Source: a virus
Lineage: Duplodnaviria > Heunggongvirae > Uroviricota > Caudoviricetes
Length of the DNA stretch: 12,819 nucleotides
Strand: one strand, 5' to 3'
Virus record (IMG/VR): IMGVR_UViG_3300030021_000014
Shown: in pieces, positions 3,832 through 11,620 of the stretch
Layout of the letters: each line of letters opens with the position of its first letter
Position numbering within the stretch: the first letter of the stretch is position 1
Position numbers and translations under genes: made by a program
The notes under the pieces: generated by a model
What the model was told of the DNA's origin: nothing
The model's input: the letters and a program-made list of their open reading frames with translations, nothing else
Databases searched by the model: none

Positions 3832-4910
3832 CAGAACGGGTCCTCCTGTACTCTGGCTTTTTTCTTTTTCCGCGCGCCGGGATCTTCGGGTTCAGGCAGA
3901 TAAGCATCAGGCGGGCCGACACGGATTTCCGTCAGGGTGCCGTTCTGGTCCTGAGTAAACGTGACTTCCGAAACAAGCAGTTCGGTATTGTCGAAACCAC
4001 AGACCGGATCGAAGACAATCACCCGCTGGTTGGGCTGCCACAGCGTACCGTTACCCTGTCGCCAGCCCTGCACCACATAAGTGGTTTCATCCGTCCGCGC
4101 CGCCCGTTGTCGGGCTTCAAAGTCAGCACGCGCAATACAGCCTGCCCCCGTGGCCTGCCCTGTCTGCCTGATATACATCGGACGGTAACGGGCAATAAAT
4201 GCGTCCTCTGTGCGGGCCCGCAGCGCAGTTGTGGTGGCCTCACCGAAATCATCGTCGTTTCCGGCACGCTGCCCCGCCACCTGGTAAACAGAAAACCGCT
4301 CCCGGATACTCTTCTCCGTATCGCAGGAAAGGATGTTTTCCCCAAGTACCAGCGCGGTATGTGCCCGCGTTGAGCCAATACCGCCAATCACCAGCCTGCC
4401 GTGCGGGTCGTCGTAAGCCAGCGCCTGCTGCTGACCGAGTATTTTGTTGATTACCTCAATCACCGTTTCACCGTGATCAGGCTGAACATCAGGAATAACA
4501 CCCGACGGCGCACCGCTGTTCACCACCTCAATGCCGAAAGGTGCAGCAAGCGCCTGCGCAATCTGCACCAGCGAGCGTCCGTTAAACTGTGTCGGTTCGG
4601 CTGCACAGTCAATCAGCTCAGCCGTCAGACTACGTCCGGCAATACCGGTGCTGACCGAACGGGCATCGTAACGAACGGGAGTCGCCTCCACCCAGCCGGT
4701 GATCACCAGCTCATCACCAATTAGCACTTCCACTTTTGAACCGTTTTTAATGCGCGGCTGAAGCGTGGTGATACCCTCATCTCCCGGCCATTGGCGAGTG
4801 ATCTCCACACTGAAATCCCGCGCCAGCCGTTCAATACCGGCACCGATGCGCACCGATGTCCAGCCATTCCACTCCCGGCCATTTACCCGTAGCGTGACAT
4901 TGTCGTTCAT
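3831..4910 (-). CDS. Mu P (gp44)-like tail protein / late control D-family baseplate hub
   Basis: 359 aa; ATGA overlap with the upstream gene; position after the DNA-circularization-like gene. C-terminus contains a KKKK run. Confidence 0.8.
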   Translation of the reverse strand: MNDNVTLRVNGREWNGWTSVRIGAGIERLARDFSVEITRQWPGDEGITTLQPRIKNGSKVEVLIGDELVITGWVEATPVRYDARSVSTGIAGRSLTAELIDCAAEPTQFNGRSLVQIAQALAAPFGIEVVNSGAPSGVIPDVQPDHGETVIEVINKILGQQQALAYDDPHGRLVIGGIGSTRAHTALVLGENILSCDTEKSIRERFSVYQVAGQRAGNDDDFGEATTTALRARTEDAFIARYRPMYIRQTGQATGAGCIARADFEARQRAARTDETTYVVQGWRQGNGTLWQPNQRVIVFDPVCGFDNTELLVSEVTFTQDQNGTLTEIRVGPPDAYLPEPEDPGARKKKKARVQEDPF

Positions 4911-6235
4911 TGCACTGGCACCTTCAGAGGGATCACCGGCACAAAGCCGGGATGCGTAATGGCATTACGCCGGATAATGTCCGCGTCACGCGCCGCGTTA
5001 TCAAACCAGGTCGCCGCCAGCACCAGCGCGGGTAAAACCTCATCCGGCGTGCGCTGAATGATCCGTGCAGACTGTTCAAGGCGCGTGTTGATATCCGCAT
5101 TCAGATCTGCTTTCACCCGGCGCAGCGCCAGAAACAGCGCATCACTGGTTGTACGGGACAACTCCTTATCAATTGCCGTATTCAGTGTGTCGCGAATGTC
5201 GGTCAGTTCTTCCCACGTTGGCAGGTCAACCGTGTTTTTCACCGCCGGTGCATTGTTCAGTGCCGGATGCGTGACAGAAGGCCAGCCGGTGCTCTGCGCG
5301 GGTGTTGTTGACTGCCCTACTGTGGCATTCTGCATCACCGCGGAAGTTGTGGGCGCAGGCAATCGTGTGACGGCATACGCCGCTTCGCTGATTGCGGTCG
5401 TACGAAGGGTGCTGGCAACCACGTTACGCTGCTGCGTCGCCGTGGCGGTAGTTTTACTGTCCGTTTTCCAGACGCCGCGCGGTTGCAGATCGCTGCCGAG
5501 GCTGACACCGGAAAGCGTTTTGATCATGGTGACCAGGTCGCTGGCGTTACCATAAAGGCGTTTCCCGGTACGCCACATTTTCTGCACCTGCTCAACGAAA
5601 TTTTTGCCTGACGATGGTGGCGGCAGAAGTACCGAGATATCCCCCTGCAACAGCCTGGCGGCATCCGATACGGCAGAATCCACCACTTTCATCGCATCAG
5701 AAACATACCCAAGCATTGTGCTGGCATTACCGACGACGTCGTTCTGCACAAAATCTGCCACGCCATCGATACTGAAACCACTGAAGCTGTCACTGATGCA
5801 GTCATCCAGTGCAGAACAGGATGACATCAGCGTCTGCGCCGTCGCCGCACCTGAAGTGGGGTAAGAGAGTTCTCCCGCTTCGACAAACTTCAGGTCAAAG
5901 CGGACAATACGCCCTTCACTCTTCGATGTGCTGACCCGAACTTCCCCGTCAACACAGACTTTCAGCTCACCGTAAGTCGGATGGACAAGCGTGCCGGGAC
6001 CGGGTTTATTCAGCGCGTCAATCAGGCGATCGCGCTGGTCAAAGCAGTCATCTCCCACCACATAAGCTGTGATGGACGGGCGGAAAGTGATTTTCCCCAG
6101 GTCTTCGGTATAGGGTTTGTCGCGGTTCGGGTATTCGTGCGTTTCCACACGACGACCGGTTCCCGCACTTTCTTCTTCAACCTTAAACGGCACACCGCGA
6201 AATGACGCGTCCTGAAGTCTGTCTTTCCACGTCAT
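4907..6235 (-). CDS. Mu N (gp43)-like DNA circularization protein
   Basis: Preferred start is ATG at 6235 (MTWKDRLQDASFRGVPF...) with GGAG 7 nt upstream. The ORF-track starts at 6277 and 6250 lack an RBS and overlap a hairpin. N-terminal sequence matches the recalled DNA_circ_N signature. Confidence 0.75.
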   Translation of the reverse strand: MTWKDRLQDASFRGVPFKVEEESAGTGRRVETHEYPNRDKPYTEDLGKITFRPSITAYVVGDDCFDQRDRLIDALNKPGPGTLVHPTYGELKVCVDGEVRVSTSKSEGRIVRFDLKFVEAGELSYPTSGAATAQTLMSSCSALDDCISDSFSGFSIDGVADFVQNDVVGNASTMLGYVSDAMKVVDSAVSDAARLLQGDISVLLPPPSSGKNFVEQVQKMWRTGKRLYGNASDLVTMIKTLSGVSLGSDLQPRGVWKTDSKTTATATQQRNVVASTLRTTAISEAAYAVTRLPAPTTSAVMQNATVGQSTTPAQSTGWPSVTHPALNNAPAVKNTVDLPTWEELTDIRDTLNTAIDKELSRTTSDALFLALRRVKADLNADINTRLEQSARIIQRTPDEVLPALVLAATWFDNAARDADIIRRNAITHPGFVPVIPLKVPVQ

Positions 6236-6256
6236 ATAAACTCCGTACATAAAAAA

Positions 6257-6272
6257 TCCCACCGGAGTGGGA
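6257..6272 (-). terminator. Intra-operon terminator-like hairpin plus T6 between the tape measure and gp43-like genes
   Basis: On the minus strand: TCCCAC-TCCG-GTGGGA followed directly by TTTTTT (plus-strand 6251-6256 is A6). Lies 24 nt after the TMP stop and 15 nt before the next start. Confidence 0.35.
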
Positions 6273-6295
6273 CTCATTAACAGATTAATTTTTCA

Positions 6296-8131
6296 TTACC
6301 TGCCAAAGCGCGTATAGCCAACATCATGGCTGACATCAAAACCGCTGGATCGCGTTTCCATAACCCGCATACCCGGAGGCGAATTCACAAAAGAGACCTT
6401 GATCTCACCATCAACTTTTGGCGCAGAAGCTTTGTTAATCATGAAGGGATTCGGGCCTGTGGCACCGGAGGCGTTGTTTGACTGAGCCGGATCTACCGCC
6501 TGATAAGGTGTGTATCCCCGTGCCGGTATTCCCGTCCCATAAGCATCATAAGCACCCGCGCCCCACTGCGCAGAGTTAATGGCATCGACCGTGTCACCGG
6601 AACTGTCGGTAAACCACTCAATAATTGGCTTCAGTTTGTCCCACATATCCTGAAACCACTTAACAACCGGTCCCCAGTTATTGATTACCATCCCCAGCGG
6701 CGACCAGGCAAAAACCTTCTTCAGAAGTTCCCAGCCAGCCTCAAAATAAGGACCAATGGTTTCCCAGAGCTTCTTGAAATAAGGTCCGACAACATCCCAG
6801 TTAGTGATAATTAATCCCGCAGCCAGGGCTATCGCCGTCGCAATCATTCCAATCGGCGTCATCGACATGATCCTGCTGACAATACTGATGGCACCGCCAA
6901 CGCCCATCAATCCCAGTTTCAGAATCGCAAGACCGGCAGCAAGCCCGACGACGCCGCGAATAACCCGGGGATTTTCATCCGCAAACTTCGTGAATTTTTC
7001 CCCTAACTCCCCCAGCCATTGCGTGATATTTTTGGCGTCACCAGAAAATGCGCCGCCAATAGCCGCAAGGCCGTTAGTTGCGGTCCCCGTCATTGCCTCC
7101 CACAGGTTGGACAGCGTACCAAGCTGGGCCTGAACACGTTTATTCAGGCTGGCCTGTTTATTCATCTTCTGCTGGATCTGATCGTAGCCATCCTTTCCTT
7201 TATCGATTAGTGCATTGACCACCTGAAGGGTTTCGGCATCATCACCAAATATTGCCTTAAGTACACCTGTTCGCTTAACGTCGGTCAGTTTTCGCAGCTT
7301 TGCCAGTTGCCTGAACATGTTATCAAGACCGCCAAAACTTCCTTTGCCGTCAGTAAAATCGAGCTGTACCCCGAGTTTCTGGCGGGCCATGATTTTATTG
7401 ACGTCCCTGATTTTCTTAACGCTTAATCCGGACTGGATAACTTTTCGCAGGGCGTTACCTGCCGACTCCCCGTTCATCCCCATCTGATCCATCATGACGC
7501 TGATGGGGGCAAGGCTCTGTGCAGCCTGAAGACCGTCCTTGTTCACCATCTTCAGAACAGAGCTGGTTTTAGTGAAGAAGGACAACATGTTGGTATCGTC
7601 AACACCCAGATAAAACGCCTTCTGGATAGTGTCGAACAGCCCCATCATGTCTTCTGACGCCGTTCCGGTAGCATCCTGCATCTTTGCAGCAAACTCAGCA
7701 GCCGCTTCCGGTGTTTTTTTCAGTTGTACCGCAAGATAAGCTGTCGCTTTACCCACACCGCCAAGAATGTTTTCTGCCGGGATCCCCTGACGCACCAGCA
7801 TCTGCATCATGTTCTGGAAATCAGCCGTTGTACCGGGTAGCTGGTTACCCAGGCCAATAGCCAGTTTATTGATGTCCTGAAAGCTCTTTCCGACCTCGCC
7901 GTTCGCATCCATCATGGCGACTTTCAGCCCGGTGGCGGCGTTTTCCTGATCGGCATAAGATTTCAGGGAAAGCGTCAGACCCGCTGCCAGTCCGCCACCA
8001 AGCGCCAGCCCACCCTGTGACGCTTCTTCCGCCTGGCGTTTAAATCCCCGGATTTTCTTTTGCATTTTCGACAGCGCGGGAGAAAGCCTGTCGACACCGG
8101 TGATCAACGCCTTAAGCTCAAATTCCGCCAT
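6296..8131 (-). CDS. Tail tape measure protein
   Basis: 611 aa, Ala/Gly/Leu/Gln-rich with a hydrophobic segment. Sits between the frameshifted chaperone and the baseplate genes; AGGAG upstream of ATG at 8131. Confidence 0.85.
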   Translation of the reverse strand: MAEFELKALITGVDRLSPALSKMQKKIRGFKRQAEEASQGGLALGGGLAAGLTLSLKSYADQENAATGLKVAMMDANGEVGKSFQDINKLAIGLGNQLPGTTADFQNMMQMLVRQGIPAENILGGVGKATAYLAVQLKKTPEAAAEFAAKMQDATGTASEDMMGLFDTIQKAFYLGVDDTNMLSFFTKTSSVLKMVNKDGLQAAQSLAPISVMMDQMGMNGESAGNALRKVIQSGLSVKKIRDVNKIMARQKLGVQLDFTDGKGSFGGLDNMFRQLAKLRKLTDVKRTGVLKAIFGDDAETLQVVNALIDKGKDGYDQIQQKMNKQASLNKRVQAQLGTLSNLWEAMTGTATNGLAAIGGAFSGDAKNITQWLGELGEKFTKFADENPRVIRGVVGLAAGLAILKLGLMGVGGAISIVSRIMSMTPIGMIATAIALAAGLIITNWDVVGPYFKKLWETIGPYFEAGWELLKKVFAWSPLGMVINNWGPVVKWFQDMWDKLKPIIEWFTDSSGDTVDAINSAQWGAGAYDAYGTGIPARGYTPYQAVDPAQSNNASGATGPNPFMINKASAPKVDGEIKVSFVNSPPGMRVMETRSSGFDVSHDVGYTRFGR

Positions 8132-8542
8132 GTGTGCGTTTCTCCTGCTCTATCCTGTTTGCCTGACTGACCAGCAAGGGAATTTCACTGATCGGCATAT
8201 TCAGCAATTCGAAAGGATTAATGCGCCAGTAGCTGGCGCAGTCAAAGAAGCGATCAGTGAGGTATTCAGCCGTCAGGCCTGGAGGAAAAAACCAGCCACA
8301 AGCCACGCCGCTGCATTCAGGTCTGCCGGAGACATCTGGTCGACAGAGCTTTGCGGCACTTTCGCCAGCCGCACAATGTATTTCGACACCACATGCGCCA
8401 GAAGTCTGACTGACTCATCCTGATTCATCTGGTAGGGATACCCCAGCTCGCGGACATCCTTCCCGGTGGGTTCATCAAACTCCAGTACGGAGAGTGTCTC
8501 ACCATGAGCGATAATCGGTTTCTTTAACTCAAGCTCTTTCAT
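8118..8542 (-). CDS. Tail assembly chaperone, -1 frameshift fusion product (G-T / E-E' analogue)
   Basis: Slippery heptamer T_TTT_TTC on the minus strand (plus coordinates 8285-8291) lies 3 codons before the 0-frame stop. The -1 frame stays open for about 57 more codons to a stop at 8118-8120, 11 nt into the tape measure gene. Confidence 0.55.
8273..8542 (-). CDS. Tail assembly chaperone (short, in-frame product)
   Basis: 89 aa; sits between the tube and tape measure genes, the conserved position of lambda G / P2 E-type chaperones; TAATG coupling to the tube gene. Confidence 0.75.
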   Translation of the reverse strand: MKELELKKPIIAHGETLSVLEFDEPTGKDVRELGYPYQMNQDESVRLLAHVVSKYIVRLAKVPQSSVDQMSPADLNAAAWLVAGFFLQA

Positions 8543-8898
8543 TACTGGTAATCCCCTTCTTCACCGTGGAACTCAAGATCAACCGTGCCTTCTTCGGCAT
8601 TATGGTTCGCTTCGCCGTGCAGCCAGGCGGACGACAATACATAGACCTGACCGTTCGCCAGCTCGGCAGTGATGGTCATCTCATCAGACGAGGTGATTTT
8701 GCTCACCGGAAAATTCTTCGGCACCTTGAAGGTCCCTTTGACATAAGGCGCACGGTGAGTTTCCTTGCGGTCCACTGAACCGTCCAGGCCGATGATGTCA
8801 TCATTGACCGTCCTGTTCATGGGCACCTCAATGCCGCCGGTCAGCGATAGCTGCTGACCGTCAATTTTGAAATAACAGGTTCCCCCGATACGGGCCAT
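8542..8898 (-). CDS. Tail tube protein (Mu gpM-like)
   Basis: 118 aa, immediately downstream of the sheath with TAATG coupling; typical size and position for a contractile-tail tube protein. Confidence 0.8.
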   Translation of the reverse strand: MARIGGTCYFKIDGQQLSLTGGIEVPMNRTVNDDIIGLDGSVDRKETHRAPYVKGTFKVPKNFPVSKITSSDEMTITAELANGQVYVLSSAWLHGEANHNAEEGTVDLEFHGEEGDYQ

Positions 8899-10394
8899 TA
8901 TGCAGACTCCTCTGAATACTGAAGACGGAACTGGTTAACCACGGCAAAGACACGCAACTGGTTAACATAGTCAGACGGGAACAGCGTGTTCAGGCGGTTC
9001 GGATCGCTGGCATCACGCTCCACAACCAGGTACTGCTTAAACAGTTCGTAGTTTTCCACGATCCCCGCACGCTCAAGCTGACGGTAGGTTGCCAGCAGTT
9101 CCCCTTTGATCACCGCCGGTGTGACAATCGCCTGACCGGGACCAAAGCGGGTACCGTCGCTGGCAAGCTTGTGACGCCCGTACTTACTGGTAATGACGGA
9201 TTTCAGTTTGCGCAGCACATACGCGCTGGTATGCAGCGTCTCGCTGTCGAGGTAGCTGTTATCCGCAACACCGTAAGCGTTTTTCCTGTACGTGGTGACA
9301 TCACGCTGAATGCGCAGCACCCCGCTTTCGACATACGCCGTTGCCACGCCATGAGACAGCAGGGTCTGTTGTTCGGTCATCGTGAACCGTTTCCCCTTCG
9401 GCGCAGGCAGCATACCCACCAGCTCACCGGTCTGCGTGGGACGTGCCGGATCGTTGCGAATAAACACCGCTGCGCGGGCGGTACGGCTTGCCGCCAGCTC
9501 GTCGGCAGGCGTCTGGGTCTCTTTTTCGTATCCCGCCAGGGTAATGTGCTGCTGGTTAAACTGGTCACCTGCGTTCACCAGTTCTGACAGCGTGCCGATC
9601 TTTGCCGTATACACATGACCATACAGCTGACGCGCATAGCTCCAGCGACCGCTGGTATCGTTCATCTCTGTCACCAGCGTGTTAACGGAGGCCGTGTCGT
9701 TGAACGGCAGGCCAATATAATCAAACGGCTCATCCGCCATTGCAGCCACCGCGCCGGTGAGAACCGGAGCGCCCGTTCCGGCGCTCCCCGTCGCCACAGC
9801 AATCTGTACGCCCGCTGGCAGCACTTCGCCCCCACCAAAGCCGTAGTAATTGAGGCTGACAGGAATTTCATTCCCGCAAAGCCCCTTATGACGCGCGGTC
9901 AGCGTGACCACGCCTGCCGAAGATGAGGCCGTAAACGGCAGGGCCGGAACGGCATTAATGGCATCTTTGATACTGCTGGCAATCGTCGTGACGTTATCGC
10001 CGTTGGTCACCGGTGCCTGCACGCGGGTACGTCCCACATAAACATTCACCGTGCCGGTTTCGGTTGCCGCCCCGGTCACCGTCAGCGTAACCGTTGCCGC
10101 CGCGCCCGTTGATTCAGGAACGGCAATTACATACAGTTCACCAAACGGGTCGGTCTGGCGATAAGCCTCGACCATACGCGCCAGCTGACTTCCCGCACCA
10201 CAAATCTGGCGTGCATAGTCTGCCGACGGCATCAGCACCAGACTGTTGGCAACAATCTCTGCACCGTTATTGGCATGACCAATCAGCAGCGATGCTCCGC
10301 TGTCCTGTGCAGTATTCGCAGCCTGGTTATCCATTTCCGCATAAAACAGCGGAACCAGCGTATTCGACGGAATGGTGTTAAAGCTTATCGTCAT
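8898..10394 (-). CDS. Tail sheath protein (Mu gpL-like)
   Basis: 498 aa (MTISFNTIPSNT...); size, composition and position upstream of the tube gene. Confidence 0.9.
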   Translation of the reverse strand: MTISFNTIPSNTLVPLFYAEMDNQAANTAQDSGASLLIGHANNGAEIVANSLVLMPSADYARQICGAGSQLARMVEAYRQTDPFGELYVIAVPESTGAAATVTLTVTGAATETGTVNVYVGRTRVQAPVTNGDNVTTIASSIKDAINAVPALPFTASSSAGVVTLTARHKGLCGNEIPVSLNYYGFGGGEVLPAGVQIAVATGSAGTGAPVLTGAVAAMADEPFDYIGLPFNDTASVNTLVTEMNDTSGRWSYARQLYGHVYTAKIGTLSELVNAGDQFNQQHITLAGYEKETQTPADELAASRTARAAVFIRNDPARPTQTGELVGMLPAPKGKRFTMTEQQTLLSHGVATAYVESGVLRIQRDVTTYRKNAYGVADNSYLDSETLHTSAYVLRKLKSVITSKYGRHKLASDGTRFGPGQAIVTPAVIKGELLATYRQLERAGIVENYELFKQYLVVERDASDPNRLNTLFPSDYVNQLRVFAVVNQFRLQYSEESA

Positions 10395-10548
10395 CGGTGT
10401 TCACCTTTTTATTCACGCGCCGGATATCACCCGCTGCTTCACGGCGCAGCCAGTAGTTGTTCTCATCAACATTTCGCCCTTCGGCGGGCAAAAGGTCGCC
10501 GTGGGCAGGGTCAGGCACTGACCGCCCTTTAACAGGTTTCACAAACAT
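10378..10548 (-). CDS. Small conserved phage protein (56 aa) upstream of the sheath gene; not in the supplied ORF track
   Basis: Hand-translated: ATG at 10548 with GAGGA 5 nt upstream, overlapping the preceding stop; MFVKPVKGRSVPDPAHGDLLPAEGRNVDENNYWLRREAAGDIRRVNKKVNTDDKL; stop TAA at 10378-10380, overlapping the sheath start by 17 nt. Fills an otherwise unexplained 160-nt gap in a tightly packed operon. Confidence 0.5.
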   Translation of the reverse strand: MFVKPVKGRSVPDPAHGDLLPAEGRNVDENNYWLRREAAGDIRRVNKKVNTDDDKL

Positions 10549-10556
10549 GATGATCC

Positions 10557-11117
10557 TCAGGAAGGAAGGGGTATTTCGGTGTGATGTTCGATATCGCCGT
10601 CAGGCCCGTTACCGGGATCGAGATAATCAACATCAATCGCCAGCGTTCGCAGTTCATCCAGACTGTTCAGGTCATCCTGCTGGCGGGTATCGTCTTCGGT
10701 CAGCTCGCTGATGACCGAAAAATCGAACTGATAAATCAGCTCATGACGATTCAGATCCAGCAGCGTGCCGCCGTCATAGGTAATCGGGTTACCACACGCT
10801 TCCGGGTTCCAGCCCAGCAGAGCCTTAAAGAGCATCTGCCGGACATCGTCCACCACATCATACGAGGCAAACTGACCGCGCTCATCACGCCCGTTACTCA
10901 GTATGACAACCACGGAGAAGCCCTCTTTCAGCTCCTGCCAGTAGTCGGTCTGGCTTTTGTTTTCTCCCGGAGAGTCATCACCCGGTACCACATATGCCGC
11001 CGGGAGCTTCAGCTTTCCGACCTCCGGCAGATTTTTGAACTGGGCCGCGCCTGCCACCCGGTTTTCAAAATACGGACAGCGGGCACGCAGCGCAGCAATA
11101 ACAGGAGTCAGTTTCAT
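10557..11117 (-). CDS. Tail terminator / completion candidate (Gp37-family-like)
   Basis: 186 aa; ATGA overlap with the gp10-like gene; function inferred from its position between head-tail joining genes and the sheath. Confidence 0.55.
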   Translation of the reverse strand: MKLTPVIAALRARCPYFENRVAGAAQFKNLPEVGKLKLPAAYVVPGDDSPGENKSQTDYWQELKEGFSVVVILSNGRDERGQFASYDVVDDVRQMLFKALLGWNPEACGNPITYDGGTLLDLNRHELIYQFDFSVISELTEDDTRQQDDLNSLDELRTLAIDVDYLDPGNGPDGDIEHHTEIPLPS

Positions 11118-11620
11118 CTGTGTCGTCGCTCCGGCTTCAGTGATTTACGCAATTCCCGCGCCAGAAAATAGCGTGTCCAGCTGCGGTTCTTTTCAAGCGT
11201 TTCCACCATGAAGTTATTACGTGGAGCCAGTCGCCAGCCGCTGCCACCGGATGCACCACGATGATGGCTGCGACGACGCTTTGCCCCTCGCCTCACGCCA
11301 TAGAACAAAAAAGCCGGATAAAAATCACCGGTGATACGGCGGTTTCCCTCTCCATTACGCTGGTTAGGGGCTATACGTGCCATAAAACCAGGGCGATGTT
11401 TACTGGCTCTGGGTACCATGTAACCAATCGAACGAGCCAGGCGTCCGGTCTGATAACCGGGGTTTTCACCCGGTGCCGACCGCGCACGGCGCATCACCAG
11501 CCGACGGGCATCACGCATATGACGCTGACCAATCGTGACAAACGCCCGCCGGACACGGGCGCGGTTAAAGCGCATCTCCGCGGGCTGCTGAAAATCAACG
11601 TGCAAAAAGGAAGTCGTCAT
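11114..11620 (-). CDS. HK97 gp10-family head-tail joining protein
   Basis: 168 aa, basic; GGAGG 5-6 nt upstream of ATG at 11620; position after the head closure gene. Confidence 0.65.
   Translation of the reverse strand: MTTSFLHVDFQQPAEMRFNRARVRRAFVTIGQRHMRDARRLVMRRARSAPGENPGYQTGRLARSIGYMVPRASKHRPGFMARIAPNQRNGEGNRRITGDFYPAFLFYGVRRGAKRRRSHHRGASGGSGWRLAPRNNFMVETLEKNRSWTRYFLARELRKSLKPERRHR

Follow-up and report, generated by a model that had tools for sequence, protein, structure and literature searches.

A DUF2635 (Mu gp38 family) gene between the tail terminator and sheath genes of an SfV-like prophage, and its possible role in tail assembly

The 56-codon open reading frame (ORF) situated between the tail terminator and tail sheath genes of the window, a stretch of 12,819 nucleotides of tailed-phage DNA, is unambiguously a genuine gene and belongs to the DUF2635 / Mu gp38 family. 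From the comparisons set out below we infer, with a probability close to one half, that its product is an accessory tail-assembly factor, acting at the step of sheath polymerisation or terminator capping and not kept as an ordered and stoichiometric part of the finished tail. The gene and its surroundings are arranged as follows.

10557..11117, minus strand: tail terminator gene, 186 aa, counterpart of Mu gp37, upstream (Pfam PF23840 Phage_tail_terminator, E=3.7e-26)
10554..10558, minus strand: GAGGA ribosome-binding site (RBS) of the small gene, with a 5-nt spacer to the ATG (read from the sequence)
10378..10548, minus strand: 56-aa DUF2635 / Mu gp38-family gene (ORF, translation, Pfam, PHROG, RefSeq, dN/dS)
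10402..10407, minus strand: AAGGTG Shine-Dalgarno sequence of the sheath gene, within the coding sequence (CDS) of the small gene, 7 nt before the sheath ATG
10378..10394, minus strand: 17 nt shared by the 3' end of the small gene and the 5' end of the sheath gene (read from the sequence)
8898..10394, minus strand: tail sheath gene, 498 aa, Mu gpL type, downstream (Pfam Phage_sheath_1, domII, 1C)

The ORF extends from an ATG at 10548..10546 to a TAA at 10380..10378 on the minus strand, which carries the entire operon, and its 56 codons and stop translate as MFVKPVKGRSVPDPAHGDLLPAEGRNVDENNYWLRREAAGDIRRVNKKVNTDDDKL. It was missing from the ORF list because of the default cut-off of 60 aa and appears when the list is rerun with a minimum of 40 aa. 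A preliminary description had proposed a 56-codon ATG frame in this gap, preceded by a strong GAGGA RBS that overlaps the upstream stop. Both are present. The frame occupies 10378..10548, and the GAGGA (10558..10554) shares bases with the TGA stop (10559..10557) of the 186-aa gene, giving the coding-strand junction ...CCTTCC TGA GGA TCATC ATG.... The stop of the small gene had also been said to overlap the sheath start. There is such an overlap, but with 17 nt it is more extensive than the stop codon alone, the sheath ATG (10394..10392, minus strand) lying inside the small ORF. The location of the ORF on the minus strand was absent from that description. The identities it gave to the neighbours are borne out by Pfam, which finds the PF23840 tail terminator family in the upstream gene and three phage sheath domains in the downstream one; the latter also matches the Mu sheath in PDB entry 9khy (E=1.5e-78). 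The small gene is a late gene on the same mRNA as the terminator and the sheath and is translationally coupled to both.

The protein matches the Pfam family DUF2635 (PF10948), the model singled out in the preliminary description, with 61.6 bits against a curated gathering threshold of 26.6 (E=5.5e-17, profile positions 1-45 of 46), which is well above that threshold. It also matches PHROG 208 ('unknown function') with E=5.4e-26, and it is 42.3% identical to Mu gp38 over residues 3-54 (tblastn, E=7e-7, Mu 21498-21653, the Mup38 CDS). The domain covers residues 3-47 of the 56 and is the single, N-terminal domain of the protein, as in the rest of the family. Profile score, similarity to the founding member, architecture and gene position all identify the protein as a DUF2635 member. 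Mu gp38 (Mup38) and Haemophilus FluMu gp38 (HI1510) both belong to this family, which is PF10948 in Pfam and 208 in PHROG.

The family is large. A word-indexed search gave 70 close relatives, and PF10948 is found in all of those with precomputed domains. An exhaustive profile search through 1.84 billion cluster representatives returned 2705 members of the family (E<=1e-3); among the best 150 of these, most are 44-105 aa long and have the domain at the N terminus. NCBIfam has no model for the 56-aa protein, and a literature search on the family name DUF2635 found nothing. The proteins called 'gp38' in papers on Sf14 and KS10 are unrelated to DUF2635 gp38.

The small gene is clearly under purifying selection, dN/dS being 0.11-0.36 in the core at dS values of 0.7-2.3 relative to 13 enterobacterial orthologues. 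A chance open frame that is not a gene might be suspected from the length of only 56 codons, under default ORF cut-offs, and from several phage records that leave it unannotated. This supposition is refuted by the Pfam match, by the occurrence of the frame at the same position from E. coli to Alphaproteobacteria, by the selection just described and by the strong RBS.

The source of the window is an E. coli prophage that is SfV/SfII-like and has a contractile tail of the Mu type. The 351 bp surrounding the ORF show 97-99.7% DNA sequence identity to Shigella phages SfII, SfIV, SfV and SfI and 100% identity to several E. coli chromosomes, and the locus is present in about 1070 of 5426 complete E. 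coli genomes, about a fifth. In E. coli H7 (NZ_CP010171) the identical 171-nt CDS is annotated by RefSeq as WP_032225398.1, 'DUF2635 domain-containing protein', between a gene labelled 'phage tail terminator protein' on one side and the sheath gene on the other, in a prophage that combines an HK97-type head with a tail and baseplate of the Mu type. Because RefSeq already carries the identical CDS, the gene call is known and adds nothing new. The orthologue in SfV is orf10; the proteins of SfV, SfI, SfII and SfIV have 98% amino acid identity and that of ST64B (sb12) 83% identity to the 56-aa protein, with identical gene order throughout; the SfV, SfII, SfI and ST64B orthologues show essentially no difference from the prophage gene. 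Their GenBank labels are 'unknown' (SfV orf10), 'hypothetical' or none (SfIV, phiP27). The earlier remark that small genes at this position are easily missed is supported by the GenBank/RefSeq records of SfIV, VIT_AJPSC and phiP27, where the gene is unannotated.

The protein is predicted to be a compact domain of about 47 residues, in which short beta-strands pack against one helix, followed by a short, disordered and charged tail. An AlphaFold2 model based on a 23-sequence alignment has a mean pLDDT of 84.9, and over residues 1-40 the block means reach 93-96. The model consists of short strands, a helix (residues 31-38) and a last strand (residues 42-45), and residues 49-56 are disordered. 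Thirteen positions are invariant among the 23 sequences (M1, P5, V11, D13, P14, P21, G24, R25, V27, Y32, W33, R35 and R36). The C-terminal tails, in contrast, are highly variable across the family: they are rich in Lys, Ala, Pro or Thr, and their length varies between 5 and more than 60 residues; the tail has 11 residues in the prophage protein and 21 in Mu gp38. Tryptic peptides of the 56-aa protein include SVPDPAHGDLLPAEGR and NVDENNYWLR.

Resemblances of the model to NTL9 (bL9), the GINS B-domain, the N-terminal domain of B. subtilis YqbF and the C-terminal domain of lambda gpFI were considered as possible homologies and rejected, as they do not score above noise (Foldseek E>=1, 7-22% identity, no common motif) and justify no functional inference. 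Sequence searches of the PDB with the 56-aa protein, the family profile and Mu gp38 gave nothing relevant. Charge complementarity was likewise discarded as a clue to the binding partner: although the terminators are strongly acidic, a basic character is not a consistent feature of the DUF2635 core.

The position of the gene is fixed, and the gene is part of the tail module rather than of the head. The fixed position was shown by scanning 34 loci with purpose-built HMMs for the terminator, DUF2635 and the sheath. The loci scanned were those of the window, Mu, Vibrio martha, Pseudomonas PG1, Acetobacter phiAP1 and a P. fluorescens tailocin, together with 29 genome loci from Enterobacterales, Gilliamella, Pseudomonas, Pandoraea, Burkholderiales and alphaproteobacterial metagenome-assembled genomes. 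The next gene downstream of DUF2635 is the sheath in all 34 loci, which span Gamma-, Beta- and Alphaproteobacteria. The next gene upstream is the terminator wherever the contig extends far enough, except in one locus (L116), in which the small gene starts at position 533 and the terminator HMM has no match. The triad of terminator, DUF2635 and sheath occurs with Mu-type heads, with HK97-type heads and, in Acetobacter phiAP1, with lambda D/E-type heads. Homologues are present at the equivalent position in Mu and Mu-like tail modules, in support of the preliminary description. Mu gp38 itself is of the same size class and occupies the same slot between the gp37 terminator and the gpL sheath, also with overlapping junctions. 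The overlap with the sheath gene is 4 nt in Mu and 17 nt in the prophage, and the Mu gene is part of a transposable genome whereas the prophage gene is part of an SfV-type prophage with an HK97-type head module.

The junction between DUF2635 and the sheath gene measures -17 to +6 nt in 33 of the 34 loci and +117 nt in the remaining one, which is consistent with translational coupling. The ORF could then be mainly a coupling device that sets the expression ratio of sheath to terminator, the peptide itself having little function: ribosomes that have completed the terminator gene would start again on the ORF and so be handed on to the start of the sheath gene. The tight and conserved junctions would suit such a device, the stop of the terminator gene overlapping the RBS of the small gene and both the Shine-Dalgarno sequence and the ATG of the sheath gene being placed within the ORF. 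Nevertheless, this explanation is very improbable. The 13 invariant residues, the 2705 representatives, the low dN/dS and the confidently predicted fold are properties of a protein, and the conservation of the fold contradicts a pure coupling spacer. Furthermore, in two lineages described below a terminator or terminator-like gene abuts on the sheath gene without any such ORF.

The triad is also retained in two headless Pseudomonas tailocin clusters, those of P. fluorescens Q8r1-96 (EU982300) and P. entomophila L48. In Q8r1-96 'prophage 01' the Pfam-confirmed order is prtR...holin...cma...Orf9 terminator, Orf10 DUF2635, sheath...lys, cinA, recA. The 'prophage 01' elements have neither an integrase nor head genes, and their tail cluster begins at orf10 (PMC2647930). 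The tandem tailocin locus of L48 consists of a P2-type tail set followed directly by terminator, DUF2635 and sheath. Orf10 of the Q8r1-96 / Pf-5 'prophage 01' R-type tailocin (PFL_1215) and its L48 counterpart score 67.3 bits against DUF2635 and have about 47-60% identity. Like the prophage gene, they lie between a PF23840 terminator and a Mu-type sheath, and unlike it, they are part of a headless bacteriocin cluster in the mutS-cinA/recA region. As these clusters are headless, the role of DUF2635 there cannot involve heads or DNA. The protein therefore functions in the tail itself and not in head joining or DNA handling. Mu-type Pseudomonas tailocins are under development as targeted antibacterials, so that learning whether the 6-kDa protein is required for assembly or is able to carry cargo would have practical value.

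A Mu-L-type sheath is found at E<=1e-20 in 184 phage records. Among these, Ralstonia YO023_3 and Komagataeibacter phiKM1 possess a genuine DUF2635 gene, located upstream of the sheath. In the large group of Ralstonia YO019_1, whose sheath is of the Mu-L type (HMM E 1e-106), no DUF2635 is detectable genome-wide, and the sheath gene is directly abutted by a PF23840 terminator gene (E 3.7e-23). The same is true of a Silvanigrella phage, which has no DUF2635 detectable genome-wide despite its Mu-L-type sheath (HMM E 1e-79); here the gene abutting the sheath gives marginal terminator matches only (E 0.004-0.19). Two further genes in the same slot, gp36 of KS10 and the 64-aa 'sheath terminator protein' of Microcystis phage yong2, match DUF2635 only marginally. 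The tails of YO019_1 and of the Silvanigrella phage, which are more distant tails of the Mu type, show that DUF2635 is an accessory and not a core component. It is specific to one large branch of the Mu-type tails and is dispensable in some related tails.

The protein is probably not an abundant, ordered component of the tail, a conclusion on which the cryo-EM study of Mu and the proteome of Agrobacterium phage 7-7-1 agree. In the Mu maps, at 3.3-3.8 Å resolution and in both the extended and the contracted state, gp37, gp39, gp40 and the baseplate were modelled. Three proteins of the late operon, gp35, gp38 and gp41, are those that the authors 'could not resolve', although they class gp38 as 'probably structural' (PMC11915804). 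The PDB contains chains for Mu gp37 and the Mu sheath (9khy, 9lj8) and no chain that matches Mu gp38 or the DUF2635 family profile. In 7-7-1, the 68-aa gp125 is syntenic with DUF2635, its neighbours being gp124, a detected structural protein, and gp126, the sheath. The BFVD fold search ranks gp125 first (E 0.02, TM 0.69), and hhalign matches its entire length to the family profile (E 7e-4). Although its score does not reach the Pfam threshold, gp125 is a probable distant homologue. Tandem mass spectrometry of the 7-7-1 virion identified 24 proteins, among them gp124, gp126, gp127 and even a peptide of 3.2 kDa, and gp125 was not among them (PMC3517404). The paper on the SuMu proteome does not mention any homologue of gp38. 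These absences, from cryo-EM maps and from a single proteome, are no more than negative evidence; such methods would miss a protein of 6 kDa if it were flexible, sub-stoichiometric, mismatched in symmetry or located in the tube lumen.

The last of these locations would correspond to an internal or ejected protein of the tail lumen, or to one with some other role after assembly, for example in the target cell. Its small size and its flexible, Lys-containing tail would be compatible with this. The N-terminal part of the Mu tape measure in the tube lumen was not seen at high resolution (PMC11915804), and a protein hidden there would reconcile 'structural' with 'not seen'. However, neither signal or transmembrane features nor any resemblance to known ejection proteins was found, family members differ in whether the domain has a basic net charge, and the 7-7-1 proteome did not contain the probable homologue among the proteins detected (PMC3517404). 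A role in the lumen or after assembly is thus improbable.

The reading preferred here is that of an assembly factor that departs. A parallel is offered by the tail assembly chaperones (lambda gpG/GT, P2 E/E+E', Phage_TAC_7), which are likewise small, are encoded in the tail operon beside their client, as the DUF2635 protein is beside its proposed one, and are absent from the finished particle, as the DUF2635 protein probably is too. The resemblance does not extend further. The DUF2635 protein has no sequence or fold similarity to these chaperones and no programmed frameshift, and searches of Pfam, NCBIfam and the PDB gave no match other than DUF2635. The small gene was therefore rejected as a gpG/GT-like tail assembly chaperone. 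The actual chaperone gene of the module is located elsewhere in the operon:

8273..8542: tail assembly chaperone gene (PF10109), with its own -1 frameshift site

The families of tail completion and sheath-stabilising proteins (T4 gp3/gp15 and P2 gpR/gpS types) were rejected as well, as no similarity in sequence or fold connects them to the small protein. By sequence and fold the DUF2635 protein is a member of neither the chaperone nor the completion families, yet it may work like a chaperone. If it is an accessory assembly factor, it would act when the sheath polymerises or when the terminator caps the tail, for example by keeping sheath or terminator subunits competent for assembly, and it would form no stoichiometric, ordered part of the finished tail. 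No fold or sequence similarity to known chaperones was found for the 56-aa protein.

The preliminary description had suggested small proteins at this position as candidates for tail assembly or sheath-initiation factors. The indirect data fit a role in tail assembly, and nothing in them is specific to sheath 'initiation'. Sheath initiation occurs at the baseplate. The question of what gp38 does is a minor one, and Mu and the tailocin systems make it easy to test. The comparative data narrow the search: the protein functions in the tail and not the head, is kept in headless tailocins, is dispensable in some tails and is probably not ordered in the particle.

Long DUF2635 proteins are rare, exceeding 120 aa in 4 of the best 150 of the 2705 representatives. 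One of them (P0118, 402 aa) has an N-terminal DUF2635 domain fused to fn3 and is encoded among neck genes, between a head-tail adaptor and a head-closure gene. Another (P0157, 737 aa) combines an N-terminal DUF2635 domain with an Asp-box-like SEDDGETF motif and adjoins a fibre-like Gly_rich_2 gene. Their architecture suggests a module that docks to the virion, or attaches there, and displays a cargo, rather than a chaperone. On the short metagenomic contigs that carry fusions of the P0118 and P0157 types no sheath gene was seen. A further candidate, a 138-aa protein (P0244) taken at first sight for a fusion of terminator and DUF2635, is the remnant of an internal deletion in a decaying SfV-like prophage, which makes it uninformative on an interaction between the two proteins.

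These fusions lead to another explanation, in which the virion or tailocin contains the protein as a minor structural component. Its N-terminal domain would dock to the terminator, the top ring of the sheath or the neck, and its variable C terminus would be displayed outward, the displayed part amounting to about 10 charged residues in the prophage and elsewhere to low-complexity linkers or to fn3 and beta-propeller-like domains. Such an arrangement would account for the contrast between a conserved N-terminal domain of about 46 residues and a highly variable, Ala/Pro/Thr/Lys-rich C-terminal tail. It would also account for the fn3 fusion among neck genes, for the second fusion beside a fibre-like gene and for the retention of the gene in tailocins, and it has in its favour the classification of gp38 as 'probably structural' by the authors of the Mu cryo-EM study (PMC11915804). 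It is at odds with the Mu maps, in which gp38 is unmodelled even though they span the terminator, sheath, tube and baseplate in both states, and with the 7-7-1 proteome, in which both neighbours of the probable homologue were detected and gp125 itself was not (PMC3517404). The long fusions, moreover, are rare and come from short contigs without a visible sheath gene. Docking as a structural component is the main rival of the assembly factor; it is less likely than the latter, but far more likely than a role in the lumen.

Either as an assembly factor that departs or as a docking module, DUF2635 might represent a new class of small factors of contractile tails, a proposal that is itself doubtful. 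In the first form the protein would be a sheath/terminator chaperone that leaves the tail; we know of no contractile injection system that is currently known to need a dedicated chaperone of this kind. In the second form the domain of about 46 residues may be a universal module at the top of Mu-type tails and tailocins that accepts variable cargo, which may be as little as a few charged residues or as much as fn3 and beta-propeller-like domains. If the second form is true, the module would provide an engineerable display site on tailocins.

The DUF2635 gene (Pfam PF10948, the Mu gp38 family) is missing from the records of several phages that carry it. Translated searches (tblastn) showed that it is encoded in the DNA of SfIV, VIT_AJPSC and phiP27, with 74-98% amino acid identity, and no DUF2635 gene is annotated in the GenBank/RefSeq entries of SfIV (KC814930, NC_022749), VIT_AJPSC (OR799564) and phiP27 (AJ298298, NC_003356).

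A locus of Pseudomonas entomophila places two types of contractile tail side by side.

L129, 1..20183: tandem tailocin locus of P. entomophila L48 (CT573326)

The complete P2-type tail set of this locus (fibre, sheath, tube, chaperone, tape measure, gpU, gpX and gpD) is directly followed by a Mu/SfV-type set, which opens with the terminator, DUF2635 and sheath genes. Of the two sets, only the Mu-type one includes a DUF2635 gene; there is none in the P2-type set.

Three other phages have a small gene in the slot upstream of the sheath gene, with the following hhalign E-values for its product against the DUF2635 family profile.

L131, 4733..4939: Agrobacterium phage 7-7-1 gp125; E = 7e-4
L122, 1307..1501: Microcystis phage yong2 small gene; E = 1.6e-4
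L120, 1188..1466: Burkholderia phage KS10 gp36; E = 0.012

The match is marginal for all three, which may be very divergent members of the DUF2635 family. The yong2 gene is annotated as "sheath terminator protein", the basis of which is not evident.

It is rare for DUF2635 to stand at the N-terminus of a long protein, as it does in the following two.

L087, 3036..4244: P0118, 402 residues; N-terminal DUF2635, then fn3
L086, 1580..3793: P0157, 737 residues; N-terminal DUF2635, then about 690 residues

The P0118 gene is situated among neck genes. The P0157 gene adjoins Gly_rich_2 fibre-like genes, and the region of its product that follows DUF2635 contains an Asp-box-like SEDDGETF motif. The architecture of these two proteins suggests that the DUF2635 domain can act as an attachment module.

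L126, 3001..3417: P0244, in an SfV-like prophage found in a sequencing run

In P0244 the terminator gene is cut down to its first 75 codons, which run in frame into the DUF2635 gene. This was rejected as a natural fusion protein, being the product of an internal deletion in a decaying prophage.

10557..11117, minus strand: tail terminator gene, Pfam PF23840

The naming of the terminator was compared for the window gene, Mu gp37 (NC_000929), Vibrio phage martha VPCG_00013 and Pseudomonas phage PG1 WID41922. The Mu gp37 structure (9khy) carries the name "Probable tail terminator protein". PHROG 209 and several RefSeq phage records call the terminator "portal protein", and in PG1 it is labelled "transposase". 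The latter two labels appear to be propagated misannotation.

11114..11620, minus strand: 168-residue gene upstream of the terminator, PHROG 879

Labelled "hypothetical" in RefSeq, the product of this gene has no match in Pfam; among the PHROG families it matches number 879 ("tail completion or Neck1 protein"), with E = 5e-94. The gene shares 26 nt with the head-completion gene that precedes it.

8273..8542, minus strand: tail assembly chaperone gene, PF10109
8285..8291, minus strand: T_TTT_TTC heptamer near the 3' end of the chaperone gene
8118..8306, minus strand: -1 frame, open past the chaperone stop

The chaperone gene ends in GGT TTT TTC CTC CAG GCC TGA, a sequence that includes the canonical -1 slippery heptamer T_TTT_TTC. 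In the -1 frame no stop follows for about 55 further codons, to 8118; this frame thus fills the apparent 141-nt gap upstream of the tape-measure gene and overlaps the start of that gene at 8131. The arrangement appears to be the conserved chaperone frameshift of the G/GT type (E/E+E' in P2). The same gap is unannotated in the RefSeq chromosome of E. coli H7. There, an additional hypothetical gene for 176 residues (L001 4378..4908) separates the DNA-circularisation and tape-measure genes; the corresponding part of the window (4907..8131) lacks it, and its two genes are spaced by 18 nt.
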